The notes beneath the pieces are model-generated. The model was given only the letters and a program-made list of their open reading frames with translations, was not told where the DNA came from and did not search any database. From the NCBI GenBank assembly GCA_964468345.1, contig CAYXVZ010000023.1, forward strand, positions 4,147-68,146: a stretch of DNA of 64,000 nucleotides, given 5' to 3'. The stretch comes from an uncultured Heliobacteriaceae bacterium. GTDB taxonomy: Bacteria; Acidobacteriota; Blastocatellia; RBC074. The position numbers and the translations under genes are program-made. This document shows, in pieces, positions 3,240 to 64,000 of the stretch. Each line of letters opens with the position of its first letter. Within the stretch, counting starts at the first letter, position 1.

Positions 3240-3319
3240 GCCGCAGATCGAACAGAAAAACGCGGATCAAACCTGGCTTTCTTATCCGCGTTACTCTGCG
3301 TTTATCTGCGGCTTTTTTT
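3240..3319. repeat. Palindromic element (ccgcagat/aacgcggat family), probably acting as terminator
   Basis: Imperfect arms 3240-3267/3284-3312 followed by a T run, between convergent genes. Confidence 0.7.
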
Positions 3320-3332
3320 AAGGAACTCGGGA

Positions 3333-3803
3333 TCAGACTCGATCCAGGGAGCGGGTTGTGTGCTCTGCGACGCTGGAAATCGGTTCCTGCGATGATTCGG
3401 TGAGCATTTTATTTGTATCCGGCGGCGAGAGCGGAGGAGCGGAACGTGCTTTCTTACGCTCTTCCTTGATCTGCTGCAGTTCATTCCATTTCCCAATGAA
3501 GGCGATATACAGCGCAATCCAGGCAATCCCCCCGAGAATGCCGAGGCCGGTCCAGAAGTGTCCCTGGACCAACATCACCCAATACACAATGGCGGATGCC
3601 CCCGTGAGCAGCAGACTGGCCAGCAAGGCCTGGATTCCCCGCCCCACCATCCGTTCCGTTCGGCGTAACTCCACGGGCAGATCAGCGCCTTCCTCGGCAA
3701 GCTGTTCCTGAAAGACCTGCGTTAGCTTTTCGAGCCCGAAGCCACAGGCACGACAGAATTTCTGATTCTCGGCAGCGCGGGCGCCACAACTTGGACAATG
3801 CAT
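3333..3803 (-). CDS. Zinc-ribbon membrane protein
   Basis: MHCPSCG...FCRACG, two hydrophobic helices, GGAGGT SD before ATG 3803. Confidence 0.75.
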   Translation of the reverse strand: MHCPSCGARAAENQKFCRACGFGLEKLTQVFQEQLAEEGADLPVELRRTERMVGRGIQALLASLLLTGASAIVYWVMLVQGHFWTGLGILGGIAWIALYIAFIGKWNELQQIKEERKKARSAPPLSPPDTNKMLTESSQEPISSVAEHTTRSLDRV

Positions 3804-3967
3804 AAAAGACCTCCCATTGAATCCTATTGATGGAATACGCAACGAGAGCGGAAAGGTTCGACCAGGAAAGGAAACGATAAGAAAGAAAGTGTTACCATCC
3901 CCTTCTCATCGTTCCTTCCTGGCGCATCCGTCTAAATCAGTGCATACAACTTTGGGACAAAGCTCTT

Positions 3968-4051
3968 ACGACGAAGAAACGAAGAGCACGAAGAATAGTG
4001 AGAGAAGGCATTTTCGTTCGTCTTTCTTCGTGCTCTTCGTTTCTTCGTGGT
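3968..4051. repeat. Palindromic element (cacgaag family)
   Basis: Arms 3968-3995/4024-4051, 27/28 complementary; a related weaker hairpin lies at ~3863-3923. Confidence 0.8.
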
Positions 4052-4075
4052 TGTGCCTTTCTTCGTTGTCCTGAT

Positions 4076-4906
4076 TTAGTTAATCCCCAACAATTCCACT
4101 TCGAACACCAGCGTCGCATTCGGGGGAATGACGCCGCCCGCGCCGCGCGCGCCGTAGCCGAGTTGCGGCGGGATGACGAGTTTGCGTTTGCCGCCGACCT
4201 TCATGGACATGACGCCTTCGTCCCAGCCCTTGATGACCTGGCCGACGCCGATCTGAAAGGTGAAGGGTTGATTGCGATCGAGCGAGCTGTCGAATTTGCG
4301 GCCGTCATCGAGCGTGCCGGTGTAATGCACCGTCACGTTCTGTCCCGGCTTCGGGCTTTCGCCCGTGCCGACGACGAGGTCTTCATATTTCAATCCGGAT
4401 TCCGTAGTCATCGCTTTGGCTCCCAGCACAGAGGCTTTTAAAGGAACGGAAACCCACGAGACCGCCTGCCAACCGGTGGGACGACGCGCCCAGACTTCGG
4501 TGTGACTGGCGGCGCCGAGCGGTTTGCCGTTCCGAACATAGGTTGCGCGGCCGGTCACGACAGCGGTCGTGCCATACACGCGTAGCTTGAACTCATCGGT
4601 TCGTATTTCATCCAGTTGGACGGTGGTGGATTTGAGCATCTCGATCATCGCCGCCTTGTCGACGAAGCTGCCATCCGTATTGATTGCCGTAAAATCCGCC
4701 GCAAAAATGCGATTGAGCGTGGTTTCGTCTTTCTTGACCACTGCGTCGAACCATTCGCGCTCCAGCTTCCTGAGCTGCGCTTCGGTTGCCGTCGCCGCGG
4801 CGCCTCCTGTTTTCGCGGGCAGCGGCCGTTTTGCTTTGGTCTGGGCGAGAGCGAGCGAGGCTGTGACAAGAACCAACAAAAGGGTAAGAAAAAATCTCTT
4901 CTGCAA
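4076..4906 (-). CDS. Secreted DUF4440/SnoaL-like + FKBP-type peptidyl-prolyl isomerase fusion
   Basis: Signal peptide; NTF2-like middle domain; FKBP motifs VHYTGTL, FDSS, GQVIKGWDEG, YGARG, IPPNATLVFEVELL; TTG start with AAAGGAG SD. Confidence 0.85.
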   Translation of the reverse strand: MQKRFFLTLLLVLVTASLALAQTKAKRPLPAKTGGAAATATEAQLRKLEREWFDAVVKKDETTLNRIFAADFTAINTDGSFVDKAAMIEMLKSTTVQLDEIRTDEFKLRVYGTTAVVTGRATYVRNGKPLGAASHTEVWARRPTGWQAVSWVSVPLKASVLGAKAMTTESGLKYEDLVVGTGESPKPGQNVTVHYTGTLDDGRKFDSSLDRNQPFTFQIGVGQVIKGWDEGVMSMKVGGKRKLVIPPQLGYGARGAGGVIPPNATLVFEVELLGIN

Positions 4907-5016: not shown

Positions 5017-6776
<1,760 letters not shown>

Positions 6777-6780
<4 letters not shown>

Positions 6781-6919
6781 GCAGGAGGCAGCGGCAGGAG
6801 GCAGGCGATGACCGTGGAGAGACCAAAAGCAGTTGGCAGGAACAACTGATAGGAGAGCGCGCTGGCGCTCACGATGACAGTGGCTTGGATACTGCCGACT
6901 GCCGCTGCCTCCTGCCTCC
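6777..6919. repeat. Palindromic element (gtaggcaggaggcag family)
   Basis: Arms 6777-6805/6892-6919 between convergent genes. Confidence 0.8.
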
Positions 6920-6929
6920 TTCTTTCCGC

Positions 6930-8000
6930 CTATTTGTTTTCAGCAATATGACCGATCATCGCCAACGGTTCTCCCTTGTTGACGGGCGGCGTGGCGACGA
7001 CGTAGAGGACGGTGCCGGCAAAGGGCGCGCGCGATTCATAGATTCGCTTGCCGAAAAAGTCCGTGACATAGCCGATCAGCGTTCCCTTGGCGACGGATTG
7101 ATGCCGATCGACCAGGGAATAAAAAATGCCGGTGGCTTCGGTGGTCAGGACGACGCTGCGATCGATGAATTGCGGAGATTCGACAACGGCCGCGGTCCCG
7201 GGCAGGATTTTCAGATGCCGCATAATGTTGAGCAGGCCGTCTTCGATTTTTGCAATGGAGTCGTGATCGGTGCGGCCGAGGCCGCCGGATTCGATCGTGA
7301 TGGCGGGCTTGCCGCGCGTTGTCGCGGTCGTCGAGCAATATTTCGAATTGGCCGGATCGGTGGGCCGTTCGCTGTCCATCACGATGTGATCGAAGCCGAA
7401 GGCCAGCGCCATCTGCCTGGATTTTTCCACCACCTCGGGACCGCCCGCCTTTGTGTCCCAATAGGTGTAATAGCCGAGATTTTCATTCCCGTCGCCGCAG
7501 TGCAGATCCATCACATAATCGGCGCGCTCGATGACTTCTTTTGTGATCTGATAGGCGATCCGCTCTGAAATCGTCCCATCCGTCTTGCCCGGATAAACGC
7601 GATTGAGATTCTTGCCGTCGACGGGCGAATAATAAATGGTTCGTTTCAAAAACGAAGGCATATTCGCGACATGCACCAGAATCACCGTGCCCGCCATCTG
7701 CGCGGGATCGAGCCGGGGCAACAGCCGCTGCAACGCGAGAATCGGCGTGTATTCATAGCCATGATTTCCCGCAACCAGCGCGAGCACCGGCCCCGGCTTC
7801 GCCCCGTGAATCACGGAGACGGGAAGCGTCGTGGCCTCGTCTTTTCCGGCGGGAATTTCAATCGAACCCGACGCCTTCTCGCCGGGCTGTGCCGTGATCG
7901 GTCCCACGACAAAGCCGCGGCGGGGCTGCTGTGCGTTACTGCTGATACTGAAGAAAAGAAAAAATACTGCCAGAATCGTGGGGAGGTTCCGCCTGGTCAT
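6930..8000 (-). CDS. Succinylglutamate desuccinylase/aspartoacylase (M14-like) family protein
   Basis: AGNHGYE, NLNRVYPG, MDLHCG motifs; signal peptide; C-terminal biotinyl-like domain. Confidence 0.85.
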   Translation of the reverse strand: MTRRNLPTILAVFFLFFSISSNAQQPRRGFVVGPITAQPGEKASGSIEIPAGKDEATTLPVSVIHGAKPGPVLALVAGNHGYEYTPILALQRLLPRLDPAQMAGTVILVHVANMPSFLKRTIYYSPVDGKNLNRVYPGKTDGTISERIAYQITKEVIERADYVMDLHCGDGNENLGYYTYWDTKAGGPEVVEKSRQMALAFGFDHIVMDSERPTDPANSKYCSTTATTRGKPAITIESGGLGRTDHDSIAKIEDGLLNIMRHLKILPGTAAVVESPQFIDRSVVLTTEATGIFYSLVDRHQSVAKGTLIGYVTDFFGKRIYESRAPFAGTVLYVVATPPVNKGEPLAMIGHIAENK

Positions 8001-8018
8001 ATTTTTTTGTGTGTCCTT

Positions 8019-9384: not shown

Positions 9385-9519
9385 CAGGAAGCAGGAGGCA
9401 GCGGCAGGAGGCAGGGTCTTTCGCCACTGCATAATCCATTTTTATTGTGCCTCCGGCAGAGTTCCTGCCTACTGCTGCTGCCGACTGCCTCCTGCTTCTT
9501 CTGCCACTGCCTCCTGCCT
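9385..9519. repeat. Palindromic element (gcaggaggcag family); right arm overlaps YihY 3' end
   Basis: Arms 9385-9415/9464-9498, with an extra unit to 9519. Confidence 0.75.
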
Positions 9520-11346: not shown

Positions 11347-13443
11347 TTGAGGAATTTTCTTCGTACGAAAATCTGGATTTTTCTAATCGCGGGGATGATC
11401 GGAGTGCTGATTGTCGTCGGATTGCTGTTCTGGTGGCGCGGCCGGCCTCCCAGGCCGTACGTTTCGGTCGTCACGGTGGCCGGCACGGGACTGCGGATTG
11501 AAAAAGGGGGGATTCCCGATTATTTCGGCGTGGCGGTCGATGCCGACCATCAAATTTATTATAGCGATGGATCGCGCGGAGCCCTGTGGAATCGGGACGA
11601 AAAGGGCAATCAGCGAATCGTGACGGACGGGCTGGACATGCCGTCGGGCATTGCGATGGCGCCGGACGGGTCGCTGGTGGTGGCCAACACGGGCGACCAT
11701 CGGATCGTGCGGGTGAATCCCGCCACGGGGCAGATTTCACCGGTCGCAGGCGTTGCGGGCAGCAGCGGCGAGGCGGATGGGCCCGCGGGACAGGCCACGT
11801 TCAACGGGCCGATCGGCGTCGCGGTCGGAAAGGACGGCGCGATTTATGTGGCGGACACCTATAACGACCGGATTCGCGAAATCAGCCCGAGCGGGAAGGT
11901 GCGCACGATTGCCGGGGGCCTGCAGGGCTTTCAGGACGGCGCCGGCGCTTCGGCCCGCTTTGACACGCCCTGCGGAATCACGGTCGATATAGATGGTTCC
12001 CTGCTGGTTGCGGACACGGCCAATCATCGGATTCGCCGCGTCACCACGGACGGGCAGGTCAGCACGCTGGCAGGCACGGGCGAACGCGGCCGGCGGGACG
12101 GATCGCTTCCGGATGTGGGGTTTGACGAGCCCATCGCGATCGCGGTCCGGCGCGACGGGCAGGTATTCATCGCGGATGCGGGCAGTTCGGCCTTTCGGAT
12201 GATCAATCGCGATCCGAAATCGACGCCGCAGCCGGTTCTGACGACGCTGGCGGGCGATTACGGATTCGGCCTGGAAGACGCCGAGCTGGCCAAAGCCCGA
12301 TTTCACCGTCCGTCGGGAATCGCCTTTGGCGCGGACGACGCCCTGATTTTCGCGGACAACGGCAATGGCCTCATTCGCGCCCTGCGCTCGCAGGATTTGG
12401 ACATCGGACGCATTGCGGGCCCCGGCGAAGCCATTGTCGCGGCGCAGGAGGTGCGGCAGGCCATCCCGCCTCGATGGCCGTTCGATCCACCAGAGGCCAA
12501 ACGCGATGTCGCGGGAACCTTCGGAGAAATCCGCGGTGAAATGCTGCCCGAGCATGATTCGTGGTTTCACAATGGACTGGATATTGCGGGCGCGTATGGC
12601 GAGGTGGCGCGGGCGATTTATGGCGAGCGGGTCACGCGTCCGCTGGCAGTCGAGGGCGCGGGAACGGGCCGGGAGAGATTGCGGCTGCCGCTGGTGGGGT
12701 ACATACACGTCTCGATCGGGCGCGACCGGAACGATCAACCGATCGGCAATCTCCCCGCGGGAGCGATCACGTTTCGGCGCGATGAAACCGGCGCCATCAT
12801 TGGCGTCCGCGTGCGGCGGGGCACGCGCTTCAATCCCGGCGATCCGATCGGGACATTAAATCGGTTGAACCACGTGCATCTCATCGCGGGTCCGGCCGGC
12901 AGCGAAATCAATGCCCTGGCGGCGCTCGGCTTTCCGGGCCTGATCGACACCATCGCGCCGGTGATTGAGGGTGTTCTGCTCACAAAGGAGCAAAACGAAA
13001 TTCTTTTTGACTCCGCCGCGAAAAAAGCGCCTGTCCCCGCAATCACGGGAAAGATCCGCATCTTCGTCCGCGCCTTCGATCAGGCGGACGGCAATCCGAA
13101 ATACCGCCGACTTGGGGCCTACAAACTAGGCTATGAAGTGCTGGCGCAAAACGGCTCGCCCGTCGTGCCGGTGCGCGAAACGCTGTCCTTCGATCGCCTT
13201 CCTTCTGATCCGGGCGCAGTCGCAATGATCTATGCCGGCGGCAGCCAATCCGGCTATGAAGGCGTGACGGTATTTAATTACGTGGTCACGAATACGCTGC
13301 GGGATGGCAAGGCAAGCGAGGGGTTCCTGGATTTCTCGAGCCTGCCGCCGGGAAACTATATTGTGCGCGTGTTTGCGGATGATTATTTCGGCAATCGAAC
13401 CTGGCGGGAAATCCCGGTACGTGTGCCGCCTGTGAATGGATAA
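11347..13443 (+). CDS. Membrane-anchored NHL-repeat protein with M23-like peptidase region
   Basis: N-terminal TM; about 6 NHL repeats (P.GIAV..DG.IYVADT.N.RIR); HNGLD and HVH motifs; TTG start after GGAAGGA. Confidence 0.75.
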   Translation: MRNFLRTKIWIFLIAGMIGVLIVVGLLFWWRGRPPRPYVSVVTVAGTGLRIEKGGIPDYFGVAVDADHQIYYSDGSRGALWNRDEKGNQRIVTDGLDMPSGIAMAPDGSLVVANTGDHRIVRVNPATGQISPVAGVAGSSGEADGPAGQATFNGPIGVAVGKDGAIYVADTYNDRIREISPSGKVRTIAGGLQGFQDGAGASARFDTPCGITVDIDGSLLVADTANHRIRRVTTDGQVSTLAGTGERGRRDGSLPDVGFDEPIAIAVRRDGQVFIADAGSSAFRMINRDPKSTPQPVLTTLAGDYGFGLEDAELAKARFHRPSGIAFGADDALIFADNGNGLIRALRSQDLDIGRIAGPGEAIVAAQEVRQAIPPRWPFDPPEAKRDVAGTFGEIRGEMLPEHDSWFHNGLDIAGAYGEVARAIYGERVTRPLAVEGAGTGRERLRLPLVGYIHVSIGRDRNDQPIGNLPAGAITFRRDETGAIIGVRVRRGTRFNPGDPIGTLNRLNHVHLIAGPAGSEINALAALGFPGLIDTIAPVIEGVLLTKEQNEILFDSAAKKAPVPAITGKIRIFVRAFDQADGNPKYRRLGAYKLGYEVLAQNGSPVVPVRETLSFDRLPSDPGAVAMIYAGGSQSGYEGVTVFNYVVTNTLRDGKASEGFLDFSSLPPGNYIVRVFADDYFGNRTWREIPVRVPPVNG

Positions 13444-13450
13444 CTCCCGA

Positions 13451-13555
13451 AACGAAAGAAAGAGAGTACGAAAAAAACGAACATAAGGATACGGACGAAT
13501 GCCATGTGAACTTTCGTCTGTTTCGTTATGTTCGTTTGTTTCGTGCTCTCTCTTC
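13451..13555. repeat. Palindromic element (acgaa variant)
   Basis: Core arms 13468-13486/13526-13544, 18/19 complementary. Confidence 0.65.
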
Positions 13556-13616
13556 AGTTCTTTGGCTGCGGCTTCGCCGCGCTGCGCGAACAGAGGTTTT
13601 CATCTGGATTGAAGCC

Positions 13617-16250
13617 ATGAAGCATTTACTTCTAGTCTCATTTTTGATTGCATTGCCTATGCTGACGAATGCACAAACAACAACGGACCAACTCGCCGTC
13701 GAAGGAGTCTCGCGGGAGCTGGCGCAGCAGCGGGCGCGAGTGATTTCGGACGTCCGCTATGAAATTCATCTGCAGTTCGAAGCAAACGCCCCACGGATAA
13801 AGGGCCGGGAGAAAATCACGCTCAATCTCGCGAATGCCGTGGAGGACTTGATCCTGGATTTTCGCGACCTCGATCCGGCCGGGAAAATCATCGAGGGCAC
13901 GATCGGCAACGTGAAGGTGAATTCGCAGTCAGCCGAAGGCTTAAGACAGGCAAACGGACATCTCATTTTCCCCGCAAAGCTTTTGAAGCCGGGCGAGAAC
14001 ACCATCACGCTCGATTTCGAAACCGGCGCCGCCCCCGCCAATCGTCCGTTGATTCGGTATAAAGATGCCGATGACGGCAGTGAATATCTGTACACGCTCT
14101 TTGTCCCGATGGACGCCAGCCTGGCCTTTCCCTGCTTCGATCAGCCGGATCTGAAAGCGCGCTTCAGCTTCAGCGCGACAAAGCCGGAAAGCTGGATCGT
14201 GATTGCAAACACGGAAACGAAAAGCGTTTCGCCTGCCCGCGTGGAATTCGCCGAGACGCATCCCATCAGCACCTACTTGTTCGCCTTCGCCGCCGGGCCG
14301 TTTCAAAAGCTGGAGGGCGAAACGGCGCCGCTGCCGATCAGCTTGTATGTTCGTCAATCGAAACTGGCCCGCGCGAAGGAAGAGTGGCCCGAGACCTTGA
14401 AGCTGACCAGCGACGGGATGAAGCATTTCGTATCCTATTTCGACCGCCCGTTTCCATTCACAAAATACGATCAGGTGCTGATCCCGGGGTTTGCCTACGG
14501 CGGAATGGAGCATGCGGGCGCAACCTTTCTGCGCGAAGATTCGATTCTCTTTCGCACCGTGCCGACGCGAAACGACAAGCTGGGACGGGCTTCGCTGGTG
14601 TTGCATGAACTGGCGCACCAGTGGTTCGGCGATCTGGTCACGATGAAATGGTTCGACGATCTGTGGCTCAAGGAAGGCTTCGCGAATTACATGGCCTATC
14701 ACGCGCTGGCCGCGATCTATCCGCCGGATGAAATGTGGAAGCGGTTTTATCAATCGCACAAACCGCTCGCCTATCAGATCGATTCGACCAAGGGCACAAC
14801 GCCGATTTACCAGGAAGTCCGGAATCTGAAGGACGCGAAATCGGCGTATGGGGCGATCGTCTATCAAAAAGCGCCCAGTCTGCTGCACGCGATGTCATTT
14901 TTGATCGGGGAGGACAAATTCCGCGACGGCGTGCGCAGCTTCCTGCGCGAGCATGCCTATGCGAACGCCGAATGGAACGATCTGATTCGCGCTTTTGAAA
15001 AAGCATCGAATCAAAAGCTGGCGGTGTGGGCCAATGCCTGGGTGAAGCGCCGCGGCATGCCGCAGGTGGATGTGACGTGGAGTTGCGACGGCCAGGGCGC
15101 AATCGATCGATTCGAGCTGCGACAATCCGATGTGCAGGGCGAAGGCCGCGCGTGGCCGGTCAAAACGCGCGTGCTGCTGGCCTATGACGATGCGGAGCCG
15201 ATACGATTCACGGCGGAACTGAACGGCAGCAAAGTGCAGTTCCCCGAAGCGATCGGAAAGAAATGCCCGGCATATATATTTGCGAACGAGCGGGATTACG
15301 GCTATGGCAGATTCATGCTCGACGCGCGCAGCCGCGAAGCCCTCACGACGCGCATCGGAGCCGTCAAGAATCCGTTTCTGCGCGCGATGCTTTGGGGCGC
15401 GCTCTGGGACGCGGTCCGCGAAGCGGAAATGAAACCGATGGCGTATCTGGACCTGGCGGCGCAATCGCTGCCGGACGAAATGGATGAAGAGCTGGTGCAA
15501 AGCCTGCTGACCCGCTCTGCGATGGCGTTTCAACGTTATCTGACTTCCGCGCAGCAGAAAGAGGTCGCGCCGCGCTGGGAGGCGCTGCTGTTTGACCGCA
15601 TGATGAATGCGACGGAGTTGGGCGCGCGCATCACCTATTTTCGCGCTTATCGGTCGCTGGCTTCGACGGCGGAGGCGCGCGGCCACCTGAAAGAAATTCT
15701 CGACGGCACGCGCAAGGTGCCGGGCATCGAGATCAAACCGCTCGACCGCTGGCAGATTCTGACGCGCCTGCTGGTTGCCGGCGATCCCGAAGCCCTGTCG
15801 CGCCTCGACGCCGAACGCAAGCGCGACCCGAGCGATGACGGCCGCAAACAGGCCTATATCGCCGAAGCGGCGCGCGCGGAAGCCGCCGTCAAGAAACGAT
15901 ATTTCGACGATTATCTCGGCCGCAGCGCGGAAGGGCGCGCCGTTCCCGAGGACTGGATCGAAGGCAGCCTCGGCTCTTTCAACGCCTGGAATCAATCGGA
16001 ACTGACGCTTCCCTATCTCCAACCGGCGCTCGATGCCCTGCCGCAGGTCAAACGCGAACGTAAAATCTTCTTCGTCCTCGCGTGGCTCAATGCCTTCATC
16101 GGGGGGCAACGCAGCGCCGATGCGCTCGGCCAGGTGCAGGAGTTTTTGCGAACCAGCAAACTCGACCGCGATCTGGAATTGAAGGTGCTGGAAGTGATGG
16201 ATGAGCTTGAACGGACTGTGCGCATCCGAGCTAAAGCGGTTGCGCCCTGA
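13617..16250 (+). CDS. M1 family aminopeptidase (PepN-like, ERAP1-like C-terminus)
   Basis: FPCFDQPDLKA, GGMEH, HELAHQWFGDLVT..W..LWLKEGFA, VYQKA; signal peptide. Confidence 0.92.
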   Translation: MKHLLLVSFLIALPMLTNAQTTTDQLAVEGVSRELAQQRARVISDVRYEIHLQFEANAPRIKGREKITLNLANAVEDLILDFRDLDPAGKIIEGTIGNVKVNSQSAEGLRQANGHLIFPAKLLKPGENTITLDFETGAAPANRPLIRYKDADDGSEYLYTLFVPMDASLAFPCFDQPDLKARFSFSATKPESWIVIANTETKSVSPARVEFAETHPISTYLFAFAAGPFQKLEGETAPLPISLYVRQSKLARAKEEWPETLKLTSDGMKHFVSYFDRPFPFTKYDQVLIPGFAYGGMEHAGATFLREDSILFRTVPTRNDKLGRASLVLHELAHQWFGDLVTMKWFDDLWLKEGFANYMAYHALAAIYPPDEMWKRFYQSHKPLAYQIDSTKGTTPIYQEVRNLKDAKSAYGAIVYQKAPSLLHAMSFLIGEDKFRDGVRSFLREHAYANAEWNDLIRAFEKASNQKLAVWANAWVKRRGMPQVDVTWSCDGQGAIDRFELRQSDVQGEGRAWPVKTRVLLAYDDAEPIRFTAELNGSKVQFPEAIGKKCPAYIFANERDYGYGRFMLDARSREALTTRIGAVKNPFLRAMLWGALWDAVREAEMKPMAYLDLAAQSLPDEMDEELVQSLLTRSAMAFQRYLTSAQQKEVAPRWEALLFDRMMNATELGARITYFRAYRSLASTAEARGHLKEILDGTRKVPGIEIKPLDRWQILTRLLVAGDPEALSRLDAERKRDPSDDGRKQAYIAEAARAEAAVKKRYFDDYLGRSAEGRAVPEDWIEGSLGSFNAWNQSELTLPYLQPALDALPQVKRERKIFFVLAWLNAFIGGQRSADALGQVQEFLRTSKLDRDLELKVLEVMDELERTVRIRAKAVAP

Positions 16251-16251
16251 T

Positions 16252-16325
16252 CAACGAAGAACACGAAGATCAGATCGAACAGATACCGCCTGCGTCTTTC
16301 TTCGTGCTCTTCGTATCTTCGTGGT
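16252..16325. repeat. Palindromic element (cacgaag family)
   Basis: caacgaagaacacgaaga / tcttcgtgctcttcgtatcttcgtggt. Confidence 0.7.
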
Positions 16326-48742: not shown

Positions 48743-48758
48743 GATTTCTCCCTCCTCT

Positions 48759-50021: not shown

Positions 50022-50972
50022 ATGATGACAGCAGTAGAAAACATTGAAGAGTCGATCCGGCAGCGGGGCGCGGTGCGAACCTATGTGGAATATGGCATCG
50101 CGTGGGTGATCCTGCATACGGTGAGTCTGTTGCCGCGATCGCTGGCGATTCGCGCGGGCTATGCGGTGGGAAGCCTTGCGCGTCGCGTCCTGCCGCACCT
50201 GGACGAGCACGCCGAAATCAACCTGCGGATCGCGCTGCCGGAGCTGGAGGCGGAGGAGCGGGCGCGGATCAAGCGAAACGTCTTTCGAAACCTGGGCCGG
50301 CTGCTCGGCGAGATCAGCCAGTTCCCGCGCTTGAATCGCGAGAAGATCGCGTCGATCGTCGTGTATGAAGGGCTGGAGAATTACAAACAGGCCGTGGCGT
50401 CGGGGCGGGGCGTGATTTTATTGACCGGCCATATCGGCGCCTGGGAGCTGTCGGTCTTCGCGCATTCGATCTATGGCTATCCGATGTCCTTTCTCAAACG
50501 CAATGTCGATAATCCGCTGGTCGAAGCGCTGGCGGAAAGCTATCGTTCGCGTTTCGGCAATCGCAGCATCGACAAGAAAAACTCCATTCGCGAAGTATTG
50601 AAAACTCTCAAAGCGGGCGGCGTGGTCGGCATTCTGGCGGATCTGAACGCTTCGCGCGAAGAAGGCGTCTTCGTGGATTTCTTCGGCCGGCCGGCCTGCA
50701 CGACCGCGGGCGTGGCGACGCTGGCCCTGCGAACCGGCGCGGTGGTCCTGCCCGGTTATCTGCTCTGGGATGAAAAGGCGCAGATTCACCGGCTGCATTT
50801 CGAAGCGCCCGTCGAGACGATCGACACCGGAAATCAAAAAGAAGACGTCATCACGAACACGGCCCGCTACGCGAAAGTCCTCGAATCCATCATTCGCCGC
50901 CATCCCGATCAATGGCTCTGGATCCATCGCCGCTGGAAAACCCGGCCGGAAGGGGAAGCGGACCTGTATTGA
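50022..50972 (+). CDS. Lipid A acyltransferase (LpxL/HtrB family)
   Basis: GHIGAWE (HxxxxE/D), ILADLN, DFFG.PA, PDQWLW.HRRWK; upstream of lpxB. Confidence 0.85.
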   Translation: MMTAVENIEESIRQRGAVRTYVEYGIAWVILHTVSLLPRSLAIRAGYAVGSLARRVLPHLDEHAEINLRIALPELEAEERARIKRNVFRNLGRLLGEISQFPRLNREKIASIVVYEGLENYKQAVASGRGVILLTGHIGAWELSVFAHSIYGYPMSFLKRNVDNPLVEALAESYRSRFGNRSIDKKNSIREVLKTLKAGGVVGILADLNASREEGVFVDFFGRPACTTAGVATLALRTGAVVLPGYLLWDEKAQIHRLHFEAPVETIDTGNQKEDVITNTARYAKVLESIIRRHPDQWLWIHRRWKTRPEGEADLY

Positions 50973-51113
50973 TTGCGGATTGCGGAATCTTTGATTGCGG
51001 ACTGCGGATTGCGGATTTTCTTGCCCAGATCTGTAACAAAAACCGACTTTTCAACCTTTACCAGCGGCTTATCAATGACGAATTCCGCAATCCGCAATCC
51101 GCAATCCGCAATT
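50969..51113. repeat. ttgcgga/atccgca heptamer hairpin element spanning the lpxL stop and lpxB start
   Basis: Left arms 50969-51016; right arm 51081-51113. Confidence 0.88.
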
Positions 51114-52235
51114 CCACTCTTGCTCGTGGCCGGCGAAGCCTCCGGCGACAAGCACGGCGCGAAATTGGTTTCGGCCTTGCGGGCCTTGCGCCCCGAGTGG
51201 TCCTTTGAGTTTTTCGGCGCGGGCGGGGACGAGATGCGCGCGGTCGGCGTCGAGACGCTGGTCGATTCGCGCGAAGTCGCCATTATGGGCGCGCTCGAAG
51301 TCGCCAAGGCATTGCCCAAATTCCTGCGCGTGTTCAAACGCCTGCGCGAATCGGCGAACGAGCGAAAGCCCGCGCTGGTCGTGCTGATCGACTGGCCCGA
51401 ATTCAATCTGCGCCTCGCGAAAAAGCTGCATCGCGACGGGCATCGCGTGGTCTATTACATCAGCCCGCAGCTCTGGGCCTGGCGAAGCTATCGCGTCAAC
51501 ATCGTCAAGCGCTTCATCGAGCGGATGCTCGTCATTCTTCCCTTCGAAAAAGAATATTACGAGGGCCACGGCGTCGAGGTGGACTATGTGGGCCATCCGC
51601 TGCTCGACAGCGTGCGGGTCACGAAGTCGAAAGAAGCGTTCTGCGCGGAATACGGATTGGACGCGGGGCGGCCGATGGTGGCGCTGTTGCCGGGCAGCCG
51701 GCATACGGAATTGAAATACATTTTGCCGCCGCTGCTCGATGCGGCGCGATTGCTGGAAGCGAGCGCGCCCGAAGTGCAATGCATTCTGCCGCTCGCCGGC
51801 ACCTTTCATCGCGAAGAAGTCGCGGGCGCGCCGGCCGGCTTGCGGATCGTCGAGCGCGATACGTACAACGCCGTCGCCGCGGCGGATCTGGCCGCGGTCG
51901 CAAGCGGAACGGCGACGCTGGAAACGGCGATCCTCGGCACGCCGCTGATCGTCGTCTATCGCGCGTCTTCGCTGAACTGGCGGATCTTTCATCCCATGAT
52001 CAACGTGCCGTATGTCGGGATGCCCAATCTGATCGCGGGCCGCGAAATCGCGCCGGAACTCCTGCAGGACGCCCTGACCGGCGAACAGCTCAGCCGGACG
52101 ATTCTCGCCTTCCTTCGCAATCCCGCCCGCCTCGCACAGGCCCGCGCCGATATGCAGGAAGTGAAAGCCAAACTCGGCCGCGCACAGGCCTCTCAGCGCG
52201 CGGCCGAGCGGATTGTTGGCTTGATTGAAAAGTAG
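51075..52235 (+). CDS. lpxB: Lipid-A-disaccharide synthase
   Basis: VAGEASGD.HG, IDWPEFN, YYISPQLWAWR, YVGHPL, LLPGSR, SGTATLE. Confidence 0.95.
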   Translation: MTNSAIRNPQSAIPLLLVAGEASGDKHGAKLVSALRALRPEWSFEFFGAGGDEMRAVGVETLVDSREVAIMGALEVAKALPKFLRVFKRLRESANERKPALVVLIDWPEFNLRLAKKLHRDGHRVVYYISPQLWAWRSYRVNIVKRFIERMLVILPFEKEYYEGHGVEVDYVGHPLLDSVRVTKSKEAFCAEYGLDAGRPMVALLPGSRHTELKYILPPLLDAARLLEASAPEVQCILPLAGTFHREEVAGAPAGLRIVERDTYNAVAAADLAAVASGTATLETAILGTPLIVVYRASSLNWRIFHPMINVPYVGMPNLIAGREIAPELLQDALTGEQLSRTILAFLRNPARLAQARADMQEVKAKLGRAQASQRAAERIVGLIEK

Positions 52236-52250
52236 CGGCTGAAAAGCGGC

Positions 52251-52331
52251 GAGGGGCGAGGGGCGAGTGAAAAGCTCCATAGAAAGCGAGCGTTGTAATA
52301 CGCGAAGCGTTTCACTCGCCCCTCGCCCCTC
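52251..52331. repeat. Palindromic element with perfect 22-bp arms (ggggcga family)
   Basis: 52251-52272/52310-52331 between convergent genes. Confidence 0.88.
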
Positions 52332-52343
52332 ACCTCTCCCCCC

Positions 52344-53321
52344 TCATCCTTCAAAGGATTTTCGAATCTGCTCAATCGTCCAGCCCGCGCCGAGGGCGAG
52401 CATGAGTTTGATGCGGGCTTTGTGGGCGGGCAGCATGCCGCCGAGGACCGCGCCGAGGGCCGTCAATTGCTTGCCCGCGCCTTCATAGGCATAGGTGTCG
52501 AGCACGCGGCCGCGCGGGCAGCGCGAAGTGATCACGACCGGCAGGCCGGCGCGAATCGCGCGTTCGATGGCGGCGAGCGCCGGCGGCGTGACGTTGCCGC
52601 GGCCGAGGCCCTCGATCACGAGGCCTTTTGCGCCGTCCGCAACGGCAAAGTCGATGAAGCGCCCGTCCGCGCCGACATACATTTTGAGGCAATCGACGCG
52701 GGCTTCGATTCTTTCAGCCGGAATATGCTCGCGATCGAAAGGCCGCCGCATCACGATCACGCGGTCTTTATCCACAAAGCCGATCGGCCCGAAATCGCGG
52801 CTCTGAAAAGTATCAGTCGATTCCGTATGCGTTTTCACGGCTTCTGATGCCGCGATCATCTGTTCGTTCATCGCGACGATGACGCCCAGATTCCGCGCCT
52901 GCGGATCGATCGCGACGCGCACGGCCGAGCGTAGATTTTCCGGCCCGTCCCAACTCAGTTCCGAACTATTTCGCATCGCGCCGACAAAGACGATCGGCTT
53001 TTCTTCATTGAGCACGAGATCGAGCAGGTAGGCCGTCTCTTCGAGCGTGTCCGTGCCGTGGGTCACGACCGCGCCCGCAACGGCCGGTTCCGCCAGTTTC
53101 GCGCGAACCGCAGCGGCAAGCTCCATCATCCGCTCCGGCGTCCAGTGCGGGCCGGGCAGCCGCGCGAAGTCGATCACTTCGAAGGCCGCAATTTCATCGA
53201 GGCGCGGAACCTGCGCGAGGATTTCATGCCCGGAGAGCGCCGGAATCGCGCCGCCCGTCGTCGGGTCGATGCGCATCGAGATCGTTCCGCCGGTAAAAAA
53301 TGTCGCCAGATGTGGTTTCAA
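52344..53321 (-). CDS. L-asparaginase/glutaminase family protein
   Basis: TGGTISM, VTHGTDTLEETAY, GAMR, EGLGRGN. Confidence 0.93.
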   Translation of the reverse strand: MKPHLATFFTGGTISMRIDPTTGGAIPALSGHEILAQVPRLDEIAAFEVIDFARLPGPHWTPERMMELAAAVRAKLAEPAVAGAVVTHGTDTLEETAYLLDLVLNEEKPIVFVGAMRNSSELSWDGPENLRSAVRVAIDPQARNLGVIVAMNEQMIAASEAVKTHTESTDTFQSRDFGPIGFVDKDRVIVMRRPFDREHIPAERIEARVDCLKMYVGADGRFIDFAVADGAKGLVIEGLGRGNVTPPALAAIERAIRAGLPVVITSRCPRGRVLDTYAYEGAGKQLTALGAVLGGMLPAHKARIKLMLALGAGWTIEQIRKSFEG

Positions 53322-53488
53322 ACGGGGTCTCCTTGCATAACTCCGGGACCGTGTGTGGTGCCCATATATTTCTCTCTCCGAATATAAATCAGAGCAGGAA
53401 ACTTTGGCAGAGGGCCGGAGAAATCAAAAGGCAAATGTTGAATCCTGTCTTCTAGATCAATTTTCAACTGCGTATATCGCTTCTTGCG

Positions 53489-53572
53489 AAAGCGGACAGG
53501 AAAATAAACGACAGGAAAATAGTTGATAGATATTGTTTTTATTTTCCTGTCGTTTATTTTCCTGTCCGCTTT
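53489..53572. repeat. Palindromic element with perfect 33-bp arms (gacaggaaaat family)
   Basis: 53489-53521 is the exact reverse complement of 53540-53572. Confidence 0.9.
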
Positions 53573-53671
53573 CTCATCTCTTCATAATGCAATTGAAAAC
53601 CGCTTTAAATCGGCTTCGCGCCGCCACCCTTTTACCTTTTGGCTTCTTCCGTTTTTGCCCGATTTCTTTTC

Positions 53672-57201: not shown

Positions 57202-60123
<2,922 letters not shown>

Positions 60124-60125: not shown

Positions 60126-60183
60126 GTTATGAGTCTTATAGGACCTATAAGACTTATAGGTCCTATAAGACTTATAAGAACTA
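60126..60183. repeat. 9-bp-period tandem repeat (cttatagg family), about 6 units
   Basis: ttatgagtc ttataggac ctataagac ttataggtc ctataagac ttataagaa, between convergent stops. Confidence 0.85.
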
Positions 60184-61509
60184 TTTCTCAAACGCCTCAG
60201 GATGCAAAAATTTCCCTCGCGCTTCCTGCGGTTTCATTTCCTCGACCTGAATGCGGTATTTCTCGGCATAGGCGTCTTTGCGAACGCCGGTCAACTGCCA
60301 TGAAATTTCCATCCCGGGTTTGCCGCCCGCGATATTGAACCGGTTGCCCTGCACCTTTTTGGCGACGAACACCGGCGCATAATCGCCGATCGGCGTCAGT
60401 TGATAACGGAATTCGCGATTGAGCGCCTCGAACCAGTCCGGCAGCGTGACTTCGGCCGAGCCGTCTTTGCCGAGCGTGACGATGCCGTTATAGATATTCA
60501 TCATATCCGGCGATTCGACGAAGGAATGCGAGAGATATTTGTTTTCCGGATCGAGCGGATGATCGATCTTGAATGCGCCGCCCGCCTTCGACAAAAATCC
60601 CGCCACGTGAACGCGGCCGATGAAATAACCGGCGAAGCCATTCGGACTGTCGGTGCGGCCGACCACGCCGTAATTGACGCCCGTCGTATTCGTCGCATAG
60701 CCGAGGACGCCGCGGCCGTTCAAACCGGCATTGAGGCCTTTGACGCCGAAGGTCAGGCCGGTCTCGGCATTGATTTCGCCGAGCACGCCGACGCCCGTGT
60801 TGCTTTTGCTCTCGCCGCGAACGCCGATGTTATCGCCGGTCGTCGAAACGCCGATGCCCTCGACGCCGATGCCGTTCCTGCTCAGAGACGTGCCTTTCAC
60901 GCCGATGCCCTCGCTCTTTTCATTCGGATCAGTCGATTCATGCAGTCCCTGCCCGAACACGCCGATGCCGATGTTGCTGAACGATCCGGCATGAACGCCG
61001 AAATTCGAACCCTTTTTCCCCTGCGACAAAGCATACACGGCGCTGCCGGTCGTCACCTCGTCCGGATCTTTCGAAGGCTGCAAAACGGCTTGAATCGTAT
61101 TGGCGCTGTTTCTGTCTTCGGGCATGTAATACACGCGGAGCCGGATGTTCGCTCCCGGCGTTGTGCCGATCGCGACGTTGCCGCCGTCCTCCACAATCAC
61201 ATCTTCCAGATCGAGTCTTCCCCGCTTGACGCTGGCCGCGGCCGCGCCCGGCTCCTTGATCGTCAGCGTCCAGTCATATACCCCCTCTTTTTGCGCCGGC
61301 CAGAGAATCTCGTTCTTCGCAACCGTTCCGCTGTCATAAATGGCCGCGCCGGTGTGATCGTGAATCTGCAATCGCAGCGTTTCGACCGGTCGCAGACTAG
61401 AAAAGCGCAGTTGCCGCGCGCCGGCCGCCGGTGCGCTCTGCGCAAGGCTGACGGAAGAAAGCAGCAGCGTCAGCAGCAGGCTGAAAAATATTTTTGAAAT
61501 CGTCGACAT
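60181..61509 (-). CDS. Secreted fibre/adhesin-like protein with Gly-rich beta repeats and an S74-like chaperone-type C-terminus
   Basis: Signal peptide; repeated GVxG units; FKIDHPLDPENKYLSHSFVESP...LPDWFEALN; GGAGGT SD. Confidence 0.7.
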   Translation of the reverse strand: MSTISKIFFSLLLTLLLSSVSLAQSAPAAGARQLRFSSLRPVETLRLQIHDHTGAAIYDSGTVAKNEILWPAQKEGVYDWTLTIKEPGAAAASVKRGRLDLEDVIVEDGGNVAIGTTPGANIRLRVYYMPEDRNSANTIQAVLQPSKDPDEVTTGSAVYALSQGKKGSNFGVHAGSFSNIGIGVFGQGLHESTDPNEKSEGIGVKGTSLSRNGIGVEGIGVSTTGDNIGVRGESKSNTGVGVLGEINAETGLTFGVKGLNAGLNGRGVLGYATNTTGVNYGVVGRTDSPNGFAGYFIGRVHVAGFLSKAGGAFKIDHPLDPENKYLSHSFVESPDMMNIYNGIVTLGKDGSAEVTLPDWFEALNREFRYQLTPIGDYAPVFVAKKVQGNRFNIAGGKPGMEISWQLTGVRKDAYAEKYRIQVEEMKPQEARGKFLHPEAFEK

Positions 61510-61695: not shown

Positions 61696-61738
61696 AAAAA
61701 AATAAGGGAGATCCAATTGAGAAAATCGAATCTCCCTT
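61696..61738 (-). terminator. Rho-independent terminator after the small peptide gene
   Basis: aagggagat/atctccctt stem followed by a T tract on the minus strand. Confidence 0.65.
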
Positions 61739-61769
61739 CCGAGTGCGATGGAGCAATTCCCTGGAGAGC

Positions 61770-61964
61770 TTATGAGAGAAGACGCTGCACGAGCCCGATC
61801 AGAATCGCGATGATCCCGGACGGTCCGGGCGGCACTGGCGCCGGCGCCGGTTGCGGCGGAATGCCCGTCCCCGTCGAAGCCAACGAGTTCGCGGCAAAGA
61901 CGAGGCAAAGAGCGAAGGCAATGGCGACTTTCGCCACAGTCGATGTGGATAACACGTTTTTCAT
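61770..61964 (-). CDS. 64-aa secreted Pro-rich peptide
   Basis: AAAGGA SD, signal peptide ending ANSLA, PPQPAPAPVPPGP linker, hydrophobic C-terminal helix, own terminator. Confidence 0.65.
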   Translation of the reverse strand: MKNVLSTSTVAKVAIAFALCLVFAANSLASTGTGIPPQPAPAPVPPGPSGIIAILIGLVQRLLS

Positions 61965-62216
61965 ATGCAACAGATCCTTTCAAATTTCGAAATTGAAATC
62001 GATCGGGGCGCAAACTGCCGGGGCGGCATGCCCCGGCACTGTCACATGACGGAATCCGGGTTCCCATCCGGCCATGGCAAAAATTTTTTCCGCCTGCAGG
62101 TACGCCTGGGCGCTCTTATCTTCAGTTCTCAGGATGTAAGGGGAACGAAGCGCTGATCCGATCAAGGAGTTGCTTCGCTTCGAAAAAATATCAGCCAATT
62201 GCGTGAGGTTTTATTG

Positions 62217-62792
62217 ATGACGCAATCATCCGCACAGCAAATCACACATCTGTTACTCGCATGGAGAGAAGGCGATCAGGTCGCATTGCAGCGCCTGATG
62301 CCGCTGGTCTATGAAGAACTGCGCCGCATCGCAAGACATTTCATGCATGGCCAGCGCCCGGGCCATGCCCTGCAAACAACCGATCTCGTCAACGAAGCCT
62401 ATCTGCGGTTGATCGATTCCAGCCGCGTCAACTGGCAAAGCCGAACCCATTTTTTCGCCGTTGCGGCGCAACTGATGCGGCGCATCCTGGTGGATATTGC
62501 CCGGCGGCAGGCCAGCCTGAAACGGGGCGAAGGAGCGCGGCAGGTTTCGCTGGAGCGGGCGATGGATTTTTCAGCCGCGCCGGCAACGGACCTTGTCGCG
62601 CTGGATGACGCGCTCAATACGCTGGCGACGATGAACCCGCGGCAAAGCCAGATTGTTGAACTGCGGTATTTCGGCGGGCTGAGCGAAGCCGAAACGGCCG
62701 AAGCCCTCGGCATCTCGGAACGAACGGTTCGGCGGGACTGGAATCTGGCGCGCGCCTGGCTCTATCGGGAACTATCCCAAGCAACCGCGTGA
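62217..62792 (+). CDS. ECF sigma factor, kinase-associated type (TIGR02999-like)
   Basis: ITHLL.AW.EGD..AL..L.PLVYEELRRIA, LQTTDLVNEAYLRL, VELRYFGGL, RDW..ARAWL. Confidence 0.92.
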   Translation: MTQSSAQQITHLLLAWREGDQVALQRLMPLVYEELRRIARHFMHGQRPGHALQTTDLVNEAYLRLIDSSRVNWQSRTHFFAVAAQLMRRILVDIARRQASLKRGEGARQVSLERAMDFSAAPATDLVALDDALNTLATMNPRQSQIVELRYFGGLSEAETAEALGISERTVRRDWNLARAWLYRELSQATA

Positions 62793-62826
62793 ACGCATCC
62801 CTCATCAAGTGTTCGGTTCAATAAAC

Positions 62827-64000
62827 ATGATGACTCCGGAACGATGGGAACAAGTCGCCGATCTGTTTCACGAAGCGCTCGCGCGGCCGCGCGAACAGCG
62901 CGCCTGCCTGTTGCAACTGGCCTGCAAGGGAGACGAGGCGTTGCGCGTCGAGGTCGAATCGCTGCTCGCCGCCGATGCCGAAGCCGAGGGGTTCATTGCC
63001 GATCCCGCCGTCAAAGAGGCGGCCCGGATGCTTGTCCGGCAACCGGAATCGCAGGAGATCAGCAAAACAACATTGCCCGACGGATCACGACTCGGCCCCT
63101 ACGATATTCTCTCGCTGGTGGGCGCAGGCGGCATGGGCGAAGTCTATCTGGCGAACGATCCGCGCCTGCATCGCCCGGTCGCGCTCAAATTGCTGCCCGC
63201 CGCCTTTGCAAACGATGACGCCCGCGTGCGGCGCTTTGACCGGGAAGCCCGCGCCGTTTCCGCGCTCAATCATCCGAATATCCTGACGGTGTATGAAATC
63301 GGCGAAGCGGAAGGACGCCGCTTCATTGCGACGGAATTTGTCGCGGGCCAGACGCTGCGGGAGCTTCTCTCGCAGGGGCGAATCCCGCTGGGCTCCGTGC
63401 TCGACATCGCGATTCAGATCGCGAGCGCCCTGCAGTTCGCGCACGAAGCGGGCATCATTCATAGAGATATCAAGCCCGAAAACATCATGTTGCGGCCGGA
63501 TGGTCTGGTGAAAGTGCTGGATTTCGGACTCGCCAAAATCCAGGAATTGCGGAATGCGGATTTCGGAATGTGGATTGAAGACAGTGACGGCGTAAACAGC
63601 ACCAATCCGCATTCCGCAATCCGCAATCCGCAATTAACGCCCCCCGGCCTCGTGATGGGCACCGTTACCTATATGTCGCCGGAGCAGATCCAGGGTGATC
63701 CCGTCGATGCGCGCAGCGATCTGTTCAGCCTCGGCGTGATGATCTATGAAATGCTGGCCGGCGAGCGCCCTTTCCAGGCGCAATACACCAGTCATCTGAT
63801 TCTGGCCATTCTCGACCAGCCGCCCACGCCGCTTTCAAAGCCCGCGCCGGATCTGCCGCCTGAACTCGATGCCCTGCTGATAAAAGCGCTGCAGAAAGAT
63901 CCCTCGCAGCGATACCAAACCGCCGCGGAGTTGATCGCCGCCTTGAAAGCCTTCCGGCGGACGGCGGAGGTGCCGACCGATCGACTTTCGATTTCCCGCC
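62827..64000 (+). CDS. Hanks-type Ser/Thr protein kinase (3' end outside window; absent from ORF track)
   Basis: MMTPERWEQV..LF; GAGGMGEVY, VALKLL, HRDIKPEN, KVLDFGLAK, GTVTYMSPEQ, DLFSLG. Confidence 0.93.
   Translation, partial: MMTPERWEQVADLFHEALARPREQRACLLQLACKGDEALRVEVESLLAADAEAEGFIADPAVKEAARMLVRQPESQEISKTTLPDGSRLGPYDILSLVGAGGMGEVYLANDPRLHRPVALKLLPAAFANDDARVRRFDREARAVSALNHPNILTVYEIGEAEGRRFIATEFVAGQTLRELLSQGRIPLGSVLDIAIQIASALQFAHEAGIIHRDIKPENIMLRPDGLVKVLDFGLAKIQELRNADFGMWIEDSDGVNSTNPHSAIRNPQLTPPGLVMGTVTYMSPEQIQGDPVDARSDLFSLGVMIYEMLAGERPFQAQYTSHLILAILDQPPTPLSKPAPDLPPELDALLIKALQKDPSQRYQTAAELIAALKAFRRTAEVPTDRLSISR
63545..63635. repeat. ttgcgga/atccgca hairpin element in frame inside the kinase activation segment
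   Basis: 32-nt arms 63545-63576/63604-63635, 29/32 complementary, 27-nt spacer. Confidence 0.9.

Follow-up and report, generated by a model that had tools for sequence, protein, structure and literature searches.

What are the short palindromes with tandemly repeated arms that recur throughout a 64,000-nt stretch of DNA from an uncultured Heliobacteriaceae bacterium (contig CAYXVZ010000023.1), and how did they come to be there? This stretch, called the window below, is C23:4147-68146 of the 10.35-Mb draft genome, of 57% G+C, of a soil-type acidobacterium (assembly 96.5% complete), and its phosphoenolpyruvate (PEP) carboxylase is nearest to those of Blastocatellia (Acidobacteriota) metagenome-assembled genomes, with ≤73% identity by tblastn and 75% to L001 in the alignment. 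A preliminary description, made from the letters alone, had taken the palindromes for a poorly characterised family of non-autonomous mobile elements. We find that the elements are real, abundant and dynamic, and we propose, with a probability of about 0.6, that they are non-autonomous copies, without the gene, of small hairpin cassettes that share the build of 23S rRNA intervening sequences (IVSs).

Tandem Repeats Finder detected 73 short arrays in the window, mostly with a period of 7–11 nt, and an inverted-repeat search detected 55 arm pairs. By hand, we counted 24 hairpin elements with 7–11-nt periodic arms, belonging to about 10 sequence families, together with 2 palindromes of the repetitive extragenic palindromic (REP) type; the count falls just under the more than 25 elements announced previously. 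The arm pairs that had been given as perfect are indeed closely matched, with 32/32 positions for 25433-25464/25528-25559, 97% for 53485-53521/53540-53576 and 91% for 52245-52276/52306-52337. The predicted folding energies of the window elements range from -14 to -100 kcal/mol, with -5.0 kcal/mol for a solo half-element at 16295-16345. None of the window hairpins matches an Rfam 15 model above the gathering score, the only sub-threshold hits being miRNA-precursor models, that is, generic long hairpins. The window carries no rRNA gene and, as already stated in the preliminary description, no transposase: no such domain was found among about 50 open reading frames (ORFs) scanned.

In the whole genome, arrays with periods of 7, 8 and 9 nt number 1878, 1315 and 1638, respectively, versus 55 for a period of 5 nt, and for 2681 of the 6981 merged arrays a stretch of ≥10 nt recurs as its exact reverse complement no more than 500 nt away. 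Under strict pairing there are 992 pairs, which drop to 940 once overlaps are removed, and the paired elements occupy 113 kb, 1.1% of the genome. The figure of 940–1000 pairs is a lower bound; the largest family, ACCACGAAG, forms 348 pairs alone when searched with its 25-nt arm, which has 429 forward and 431 reverse matches (860 in total), and solo arms are accordingly frequent. The element copy number in the genome exceeds 1000.

The anatomy of the arms was obtained by aligning the copies of each family at their outer ends. Each family has a fixed terminal inverted repeat of 25–45 nt, made up of 3–5 imperfect units of 7–10 nt and bordered by non-repeat end caps, as exemplified by ACCACGAAG-AAACGAAG-AGCACGAAG, GCCACAGAG-ACACAGAG-GCACAGAG and GAAGAGAGAGT-ACGGAACAA-ACGGAAATA-ACGGAAC. 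The arms are thus fixed sequences and not the plain tandem arrays that had been described. Tens to hundreds of loci share the caps and the unit order, and for ACCACGAAGAAACGAAGAGCACGAAG, GCCACAGAGACACAGAG and GAAGAGAGAGTACGGAACAAACGG the non-repeat caps are identical across tens to hundreds of sites whose flanks are unrelated; conserved ends of this kind are a hallmark of transposable elements of the miniature inverted-repeat type (MITEs). More than 35 unit or arm families are present in the genome. All follow the polarity A..rc(A), the within-family counts for and against it, used as an internal control, being 114:0, 98:0, 73:1, 71:0 and 40:0, and 35 of 37 families begin with the purine-rich arm, the exceptions being GTCATTT and CTCATTT. 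The loops measure 9–187 nt, with a median of 30 nt; sub-families share their loops in both orientations, and the flanks flip along with them. The two arms of one copy differ by 2–6%, compared to 13–25% between copies, and are therefore 2–6 times more alike, indicating that the stems are kept, or made, as pairs. In addition, 14–20% of the copies carry a copy-specific extra palindrome of ≥4 nt formed from their own flanks, versus 3.5% in the null.

Gene-bearing forms of the same architecture are found elsewhere in the genome. Eight of its nine four-helix-bundle genes (PF05635/TIGR02436, Avd-like, ~120 aa) and all 4 of its GxxExxY loci (TIGR04256, PD-(D/E)XK-like) are enclosed by inverted arms with the same polarity. 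The preliminary description had mentioned similar arms around these two kinds of genes in related phyla, and this holds for the present genome. The units of the cassette arms are AGGGGCG, GGCAGGA, GTGCTGA, AGTCT.G.GA, GGGGACAA, GATTTGA, TATAGGTCT, CACAGAG, CCACGAAGTCACACGAAG and CGCAGAT; the C231 four-helix-bundle cassette, for example, has AGGGGCG arms and the C43 GxxExxY cassette has TCCACGAAGTCACACGAAG arms. The same families are also abundant without a gene, with termini that match those of the cassettes exactly for a part (the ACGGAAC arm) and closely for the rest. A four-helix-bundle ORF in the loop, as in IVSs, is therefore present at 8 of 9 genes, and all copies in the window are gene-less: the counterparts of the C43 and C292 GxxExxY cassettes are the elements at 20984 and 43321, those of the C15 cassette are at 42439 and 44650, and that of the C127 cassette is at 3240. 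ORFs lying between more distant arm pairs were also considered as cargo and rejected, being mostly normal genes with an element in each flank.

GxxExxY genes are present in 32 of 40 relatives (33 of 41 genomes with this one). In other Blastocatellia, 26 of 29 GxxExxY loci have flanking inverted periodic arms of the CRCRRAG type, versus 2.7% in a cross-locus control, and the L106 locus carries the exact ACGGAAC-family arm of the genome studied here. Arm similarity rises with protein identity (Mantel r = 0.25, p = 0.001): pairs of loci with ≥60% protein identity share 33% of their arm 5-mers, versus about 7% for pairs below 50%, which argues that gene and arms travel as a unit. We found no link in the literature between gene-less arrays and the two cargo gene families.

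A separate observation concerns G000 C10:59186-59645 and C11:68433-68912. At both places GTCATTT arms enclose an insert of about 415 nt, and the two inserts are near-identical. Their sole ORF (82 aa, low complexity) looks spurious; they may represent a third cassette type, or cargo that is non-coding.

Turnover is seen between species. The 25-nt arm of the largest family has 860 matches here, versus 0–11 in three genomes of the same genus and ≤41 in 37 other relatives, and is a lineage-specific burst. Filled and empty sites can be compared at one codon site of PEP carboxylase, where a palindrome at 58872-58942 is read in frame as NCGSRIADFGLDESAIRNPHSAI, directly before the conserved VVPLFETIDDL, and is spanned by a full-length PF00311 match. 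A short form of 24 nt, the empty state, is found in 9 relatives. In others exactly the same place is filled, in frame, by GATTGCG, GAGTGCG, GAATGCG or GATTGCA arrays, by GGAGACGG/CCCTCAAT, GGGGCGAC or TCTCCCAG, or by an unrelated palindrome. On the protein tree, a minimum of 3 changes is required for the ATTGCGG-like state and of 5 for the empty state; the filled copy of the window sits among empty ones, and the empty L011 and L016 have as their sisters the filled L013 and, with another palindrome, L018, respectively. The unit variant at this site is the dominant variant of the respective genome, GATTGCA in G006 and GAATGCG with GATTGCG in G003, and G008, with an empty site, has only 3 ATTGCGG-family matches in its genome. 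The units of the two arms are not the same in L051 and L057; one of these units, AATCTCA, is the arm of the C90 four-helix-bundle cassette of the studied genome. Filled and empty sites occur among species as well as among strains. A second in-frame copy interrupts the activation loop of a Ser/Thr kinase; like the PEP carboxylase copy, it is a dispersed palindrome within a conserved protein and missing from orthologues, as known for Rickettsia. Genuine mid-gene copies belong nearly all to the ATTGCGG family, which is stop-free in every frame.

The repeat elements of the window are listed below, with a strand only where one applies; I numbers denote inverted repeats and dG the predicted folding energy in kcal/mol.

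404-760: GC-rich cluster of REP-type palindromes, from the REP family that flanks the gene for a REP-associated tyrosine transposase (RAYT) at C67 (I1, I2, I19).
3240-3320: CGCAGAT-type hairpin followed by a T-run, between convergent genes (dG -32.9); its arms resemble those upstream of the C127 GxxExxY gene.
3932-4079: MITE-like carrier of about 150 nt, CTAAATCAG..CTGATTTAG, with a ACCACGAAG-family hairpin inside at 3966-4052 (I14).
6771-6925: GGCAGGAGGCAGCGGCAG-family hairpin in the convergent spacer between an amidase gene and an AstE/AspA-like gene (I10, dG -80).
9385-9519: GGCAGGA-family hairpin between two minus-strand genes (arrays and folding).
13461-13551: hairpin with ACGAA(A)C units between two plus-strand genes, for an NHL-repeat protein and an M1 peptidase (I4).
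16295-16345: half element, a solo right arm of the ACCACGAAG family with carrier flank (array and folding).
17717-17786: ACAGAAAAAT-type hairpin (I12).
20984-21118: TCCACGAAGTCACACGAAG-family hairpin, gene-less counterpart of the C43 and C292 GxxExxY cassettes (I6).
22005-22059: perfect 24-nt palindrome with GTAG, REP-like and not of the tandem-unit type (I20).
23154-23285: composite with AGGGGCG outer arms and a heptad-phased loop containing one GGAGGCAGCGGCAGTCGGCAGG arm (I8).
23629-23756: inverted copy of the 23154 element, 91% identity (sequence comparison).
25433-25559: GGCAGGA-family hairpin with perfect arms in a divergent spacer (I5, dG -73.9).
37320-37360: array of the self-complementary 9-mer TATAGGTCT, a unit that also flanks the four-helix-bundle gene at C1:387768.
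40735-40785: array of the 9-mer TTATAGGAC (array and folding).
42439-42646: GCCACAGAG-family hairpin, a host element whose termini are those of the C15 GxxExxY cassette (I23).
42498-42581: GTCATTT-family hairpin nested within the 42439 element's loop (I13, I17, I18).
43321-43407: TCCACGAAGTCACACGAAG-family hairpin (I7), corresponding to the C43 and C292 cassettes.
44650-44725: GCCACAGAG-family hairpin (array and folding), corresponding to the C15 cassette.
50969-51115: ATTGCGG-family hairpin between a lipid A acyltransferase gene and lpxB (I9).
52245-52345: AGGGGCG-family hairpin in the convergent spacer between lpxB and an asparaginase gene (I11).
53485-53576: hairpin with GACAGGAAAATAAAC units, arm complementarity 36/37 (I3).
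58872-58942, plus strand: ATTGCGG-family hairpin in frame in PEP carboxylase (translation and domain match).
60127-60184: array of the self-complementary 9-mer TATAGGACC directly 3' of the PEP carboxylase stop codon (I22).
63543-63635, plus strand: ATTGCGG-family hairpin in frame in the Ser/Thr kinase activation loop, between DFGLAKI and GTVTYMSPE.

The 23154 composite has about 8 copies with a conserved interior and 80–90% identity. The ORF 23293-23664, situated between this element and its inverted copy, was examined as cargo and rejected, as it is an ordinary gene for a TMEM220-family membrane protein. Adjacent elements in the genome share their unit in 25 of 380 cases versus 17 expected (shuffle maximum 32), so that the clustering of families among neighbours is weak. 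The idea that elements insert exactly at the tip of another hairpin was also abandoned: among 26 nested cases, those free to vary have a mean offset of 0.44 versus 0.5 for a uniform distribution.

Turnover is also visible in close strains (X7, X9, X13 and others) from several independent metagenomes, the flanks of which differ by a few per cent or less. X7 and X9 are devoid of 42430-42634 (205 nt), corresponding to the 42439 element, and retain a 12-nt arm footprint. At the same place X13 has a CACAGAG hairpin with a 23-nt loop, without the nested GTCATTT element. The interior of the C43 GxxExxY cassette has a depth of 0 in X7 with flanks at 127x, and the C130 four-helix-bundle cassette is present in every strain examined. 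The arms also change length, by -7 nt at 50971, +7 at 51002, +22 at 51081 and -7 at 52248, and the AGGGGCG hairpin at 52245 has one unit fewer in X7 and X9. Long stems with tandem heptamers in strain-variable number, as known from IVSs, are therefore found here as well.

Could the arms have arisen in place, by slippage of terminator stems or by a telomerase-like, templated addition of units at both 3' ends of a break? The second variant, perhaps relying on a reverse transcriptase and an Avd-like protein, would give the A..rc(A) polarity and the variable spacers automatically. The invariant polarity with the purine-rich arm first, the mostly unrelated loops, the polymorphism of unit number among strains and the L051 and L057 arms, which look as if rewritten separately, are all consistent with such growth. 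Nevertheless, independent local growth cannot yield caps and a fixed order of non-identical units common to hundreds of loci, nor does it fit the loops and flanks of sub-families, which are conserved and flip together; no link to a reverse transcriptase was seen either, though none was looked for. We consider an origin in place very improbable, and reject telomerase-like synthesis as the general origin of the arms because of the shared caps and the fixed unit order. Slippage alone, which would have overturned the preliminary description, is only one of two processes at work: unit indels do separate strains, but caps are shared and whole elements are gained and lost.

Four other differences between the strains were recorded in the window. 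A gene for an NAD-dependent epimerase/dehydratase (47699-48742, minus strand; region 47624-48759) is missing in X7, X9 and X13, where about 132 other letters stand instead, which makes it a single-gene presence/absence polymorphism. Between the AstE/AspA-like gene and a VWA-domain gene (7929-8016), X7 and X13 have 1939 extra letters in place of the 86 nt found here. The 55 nt just 3' of the 53485 hairpin (53597-53653) are a single C in X7 and X9, and the 992 nt around the 13461 hairpin (12961-13952) correspond to a contig of about 2620 nt in X7, pointing to a larger insertion or replacement. As for the source of the strains, the runs X13-X19 show close strains in biofilter, biofilm and freshwater metagenomes and in single-host runs ('organism A'), suggesting an association with this host or with the water of its culture; the RNA runs that turned up were oligo-dT libraries from a host.

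The distribution of the elements with respect to genes is far from random. They occupy 24% of the convergent spacers (219/910), 13% of the co-directional ones (~250/~1940 per orientation) and 5.6% of the divergent ones (49/879), percentages that are approximate since the gene calls come from a crude home-made caller, and they lie at a median distance of 24 nt from the stop codon. A T-tract (TTTT) is present at the 3' edge of 134 of 888 elements (15%), with counts varying by family. The elements overall do not show the GC-rich stem and U-tract of intrinsic terminators, which the 3240-3320 element does. The statement that they are 'not just terminators' is thus upheld by the scarcity of T-tracts, but must be qualified by the placement bias.

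The same bias would be expected if the elements were structural RNA or DNA signals selected by the host, acting as 3'-end protectors, U-tract-independent terminators, RNase III sites or protein-binding sites, with their spread and the complementarity of their arms maintained by selection and not by selfish copying. Such signals would also account for the very stable predicted stems and for arms that stay complementary within a copy as copies diverge, and 23S rRNA IVSs form hairpins that serve as substrates of RNase III (PMC4990558). However, random insertions subject to purifying selection would also give a 3'-end bias; near-identical strains can do without copies, and members of one family are found in divergent spacers, between operon genes and within coding sequence. 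The burst of 860 versus ≤41 matches is lineage-specific, hence not a conserved regulatory design, and few elements carry a T-tract. Host selection as the source of the elements therefore seems rather unlikely to us, although it is compatible with the hairpin-cassette reading insofar as it describes what elements may do after landing.

Part of the repeats in the genome belong to other systems, and the single architecture claimed by the preliminary description does not hold in this respect. At least 67 ACCACGAAG hairpins ride inside a MITE of constant length (about 150 nt) with CTAAATCAG..CTGATTTAG ends that form a 9-nt terminal inverted repeat. These ends fit a CTAG target with TA duplication, which is the target of IS630, although the possible TA within CTAG is indistinguishable from the inverted repeat itself. 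This raises the alternative that the elements are ordinary MITEs which a DDE transposase, such as one of the IS630/Tc1-mariner type, would mobilise, the hairpin being internal cargo. Against this, about 190 further paired ACCACGAAG copies and all other families tested have neither carrier nor target duplication, and the cargo-bearing cassettes are without a transposase. The only good DDE_3 gene of the assembly, at C47, has no matching ends, and no matching transposase for the CTAAATCAG carrier was found in what is a draft assembly, so that its absence is no proof. In six families, abutting direct repeats of ≥3 nt border 0–9.5% of the copies, versus 0–6.3% in a shuffled-partner null, that is, target-site duplications are absent. 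As a general explanation, DDE-driven MITEs appear quite unlikely. Independently, an ACGGAAC-family hairpin recurs ≥15 times at constant length (122 nt from anchor to anchor; e.g. G000 C16:62033, C270:6809 and C49:40917) with conserved asymmetric flanks of ≥25 nt, TTCTTGTTTTTTGAGCAAGAAATTT.. and ..TTGCGGCTTCGCTGCTCTGTG, showing that the hairpin belongs to a larger repeat.

REP elements form the second admixture. The 'GTAG REPs', previously counted in the tandem-unit set, belong to classical RAYT systems: the cluster at 404-760 and the palindrome at 22005-22059 are of a different class, and the 404-760 sequence, with up to 62 genome copies, also flanks the Y1 transposase gene at C67:13862. Mobilisation of all the hairpins by RAYT (Y1) transposases, as REPs or REP doublets forming hairpins (REPINs), was also considered, as the genome has 9 Y1 genes (RAYT, PF01797), hairpin doublets are the REPIN form, some arms start with AGTAGG, and the hairpin elements are, like REPs, short imperfect palindromes in inverted doublets, extragenic and of high copy number. 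Yet no tandem-unit array of these families lies within 500 nt of any of the 9 RAYT genes. Seven of these genes are flanked by their own GC-rich multi-copy REP family (none was found at C19 and C31), and among the window palindromes such flanking of a RAYT gene is seen only for the 404-760 cluster. A RAYT partner for the tandem-unit families was consequently rejected, and we rate this explanation as extremely improbable. Listing the genes enclosed by arms, which the preliminary description had advised as a check, thus returned four-helix-bundle and GxxExxY genes but no RAYT.

We return to the hairpin cassettes as the preferred explanation. Whole arms have been copied to hundreds of sites, in bursts, and elements are gained and lost between strains, nested in one another and altered by unit slippage; some copies ride on another MITE, and stop-free copies survive in permissive protein loops. 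The arms enclose a short loop or, in the full form, a four-helix-bundle or GxxExxY gene. In the mechanism that we propose, copying would need a trans-acting factor that recognises the hairpin or the arms and acts without target duplication, the leading candidates, by association, being the cassette-encoded GxxExxY nuclease-like protein and the four-helix-bundle protein. Copies would persist mainly just 3' of genes because insertions there are harmless, and those retained may serve as hairpins at RNA 3' ends or as RNase III sites.

Several observations weigh against this explanation. No mobility enzyme is tied to the elements, the cargo proteins having no demonstrated activity, and neither a target duplication nor a clean empty/filled junction or movement event was seen; the 12-nt footprint in X7 denotes a deletion rather than an untouched empty site. 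About two-thirds of the loops of ≥30 nt have no detectable relative, which is unusual for the copy-and-paste of whole elements. Part of the copy number of the largest family is due to hitch-hiking on the CTAAATCAG MITE, and this family has no cargo gene bearing exactly its arm in the 96.5%-complete assembly. The number of GxxExxY genes (5 here, 8 in G012) does not track burst size, and the co-variation of gene and arms is linkage, not recognition of the arms by the protein. The preliminary view of poorly characterised, non-autonomous mobile elements stands as regards arms identical at hundreds of loci, a burst, filled and empty sites and two in-frame copies, while mobility itself is deduced from gain, loss and copy number.

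A broader version would make the four-helix-bundle and GxxExxY proteins the trans factors of one widespread hairpin superfamily, each with its own arms, which copy or maintain cassettes and gene-less hairpins alike; 7-nt units would go with the four-helix-bundle type and 8–10-nt units of the CRCRRAG type with GxxExxY. We put this forward tentatively, as a possibility with the odds against it. If true, one system would explain the IVSs of 23S rRNA, the excess of heptamer repeats and the in-frame palindromes of proteins.

One further side observation is unrelated to the elements. In the window, an ABC ATPase ORF (45796-47253) shares about 760 nt with a MacB-like permease ORF (46494-47618) of the same strand (region 45796-47618); the start of the former is probably called too far upstream, as its ATPase domain begins only at residue 280.

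In many bacterial genomes no simple repeats are more over-represented than those of 7–10 nt, heptamers included, and rRNA intervening sequences, like the small four-helix-bundle and GxxExxY proteins, have to our knowledge been unexplained for decades. The present genome is an extreme but workable case, combining more than 35 arm families, an 860-arm burst, and gene-bearing and gene-less forms side by side. Public metagenomes hold strains differing by single elements, that is, natural filled, empty and nested alleles, and the C43 GxxExxY protein with TCCACGAAGTCACACGAAG arms and the C231 four-helix-bundle protein with AGGGGCG arms are concrete protein-DNA pairs. Should the cargo proteins prove to be mobility factors, mobile DNA of a new class would be defined. 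Otherwise the elements remain a major cause of indels, assembly breaks (short-read contigs break at arms) and novel peptide loops in enzymes, PEP carboxylase among them.

Among known systems, REP elements, bacterial interspersed mosaic elements and REPINs resemble the hairpins in being short, abundant extragenic palindromes in inverted doublets, biased to gene 3' ends and without target duplication; the tandem-unit families differ by their missing RAYT link, and real REP-RAYT systems with other, GC-rich sequences coexist in the genome. Rickettsia palindromic elements are similar in that in-frame insertions are tolerated in surface loops of conserved proteins, but they have no sequence relation to the present ones, for which the same protein site has been hit or rewritten repeatedly by different families in relatives, and only stop-free families (ATTGCGG) occur mid-gene. 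Correia elements and IS630-derived MITEs share terminal inverted repeats, constant length, high copy number and lineage bursts, and one carrier here is CTAG/TA-like, whereas the hairpins have no target duplication or transposase partner and their periodic arms change length by slippage. The heptamer arrays of Xanthomonas (GGGAATC) and Nostoc and the cyanobacterial short tandemly repeated repetitive sequences are intergenic, often with about 4 units, and reach 70–75 pairs per genome in a convergent layout with the G-rich strand first on each strand (PMC4692102). This layout of the Xanthomonas GGGAATC arrays matches the polarity rule found here (PMC4692102), and heptanucleotide elements are also known from Geobacter (PMC2700814) and Beggiatoa (PMC4679880). 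The Xanthomonas and Nostoc arrays have been treated as one-unit simple-sequence or G-quadruplex repeats, in contrast to the many families with caps, gene-bearing forms, nesting and in-frame copies described here. The IVSs of 23S rRNA, which lie in helix 25 or 45 and are excised by RNase III, and which carry an ORF in Coxiella burnetii and Leptospira (PMC4990558), have, like the present elements, a long terminal-inverted-repeat stem, strain-variable arm heptamers and a four-helix-bundle (S23p/PF05635) ORF in the loop, and have long been suspected of mobility without a known mechanism (PMC4990558). Unlike them, the elements of this genome lie between or inside protein-coding genes, are mostly gene-less, have GxxExxY as a second cargo and reach more than 1000 copies per genome.

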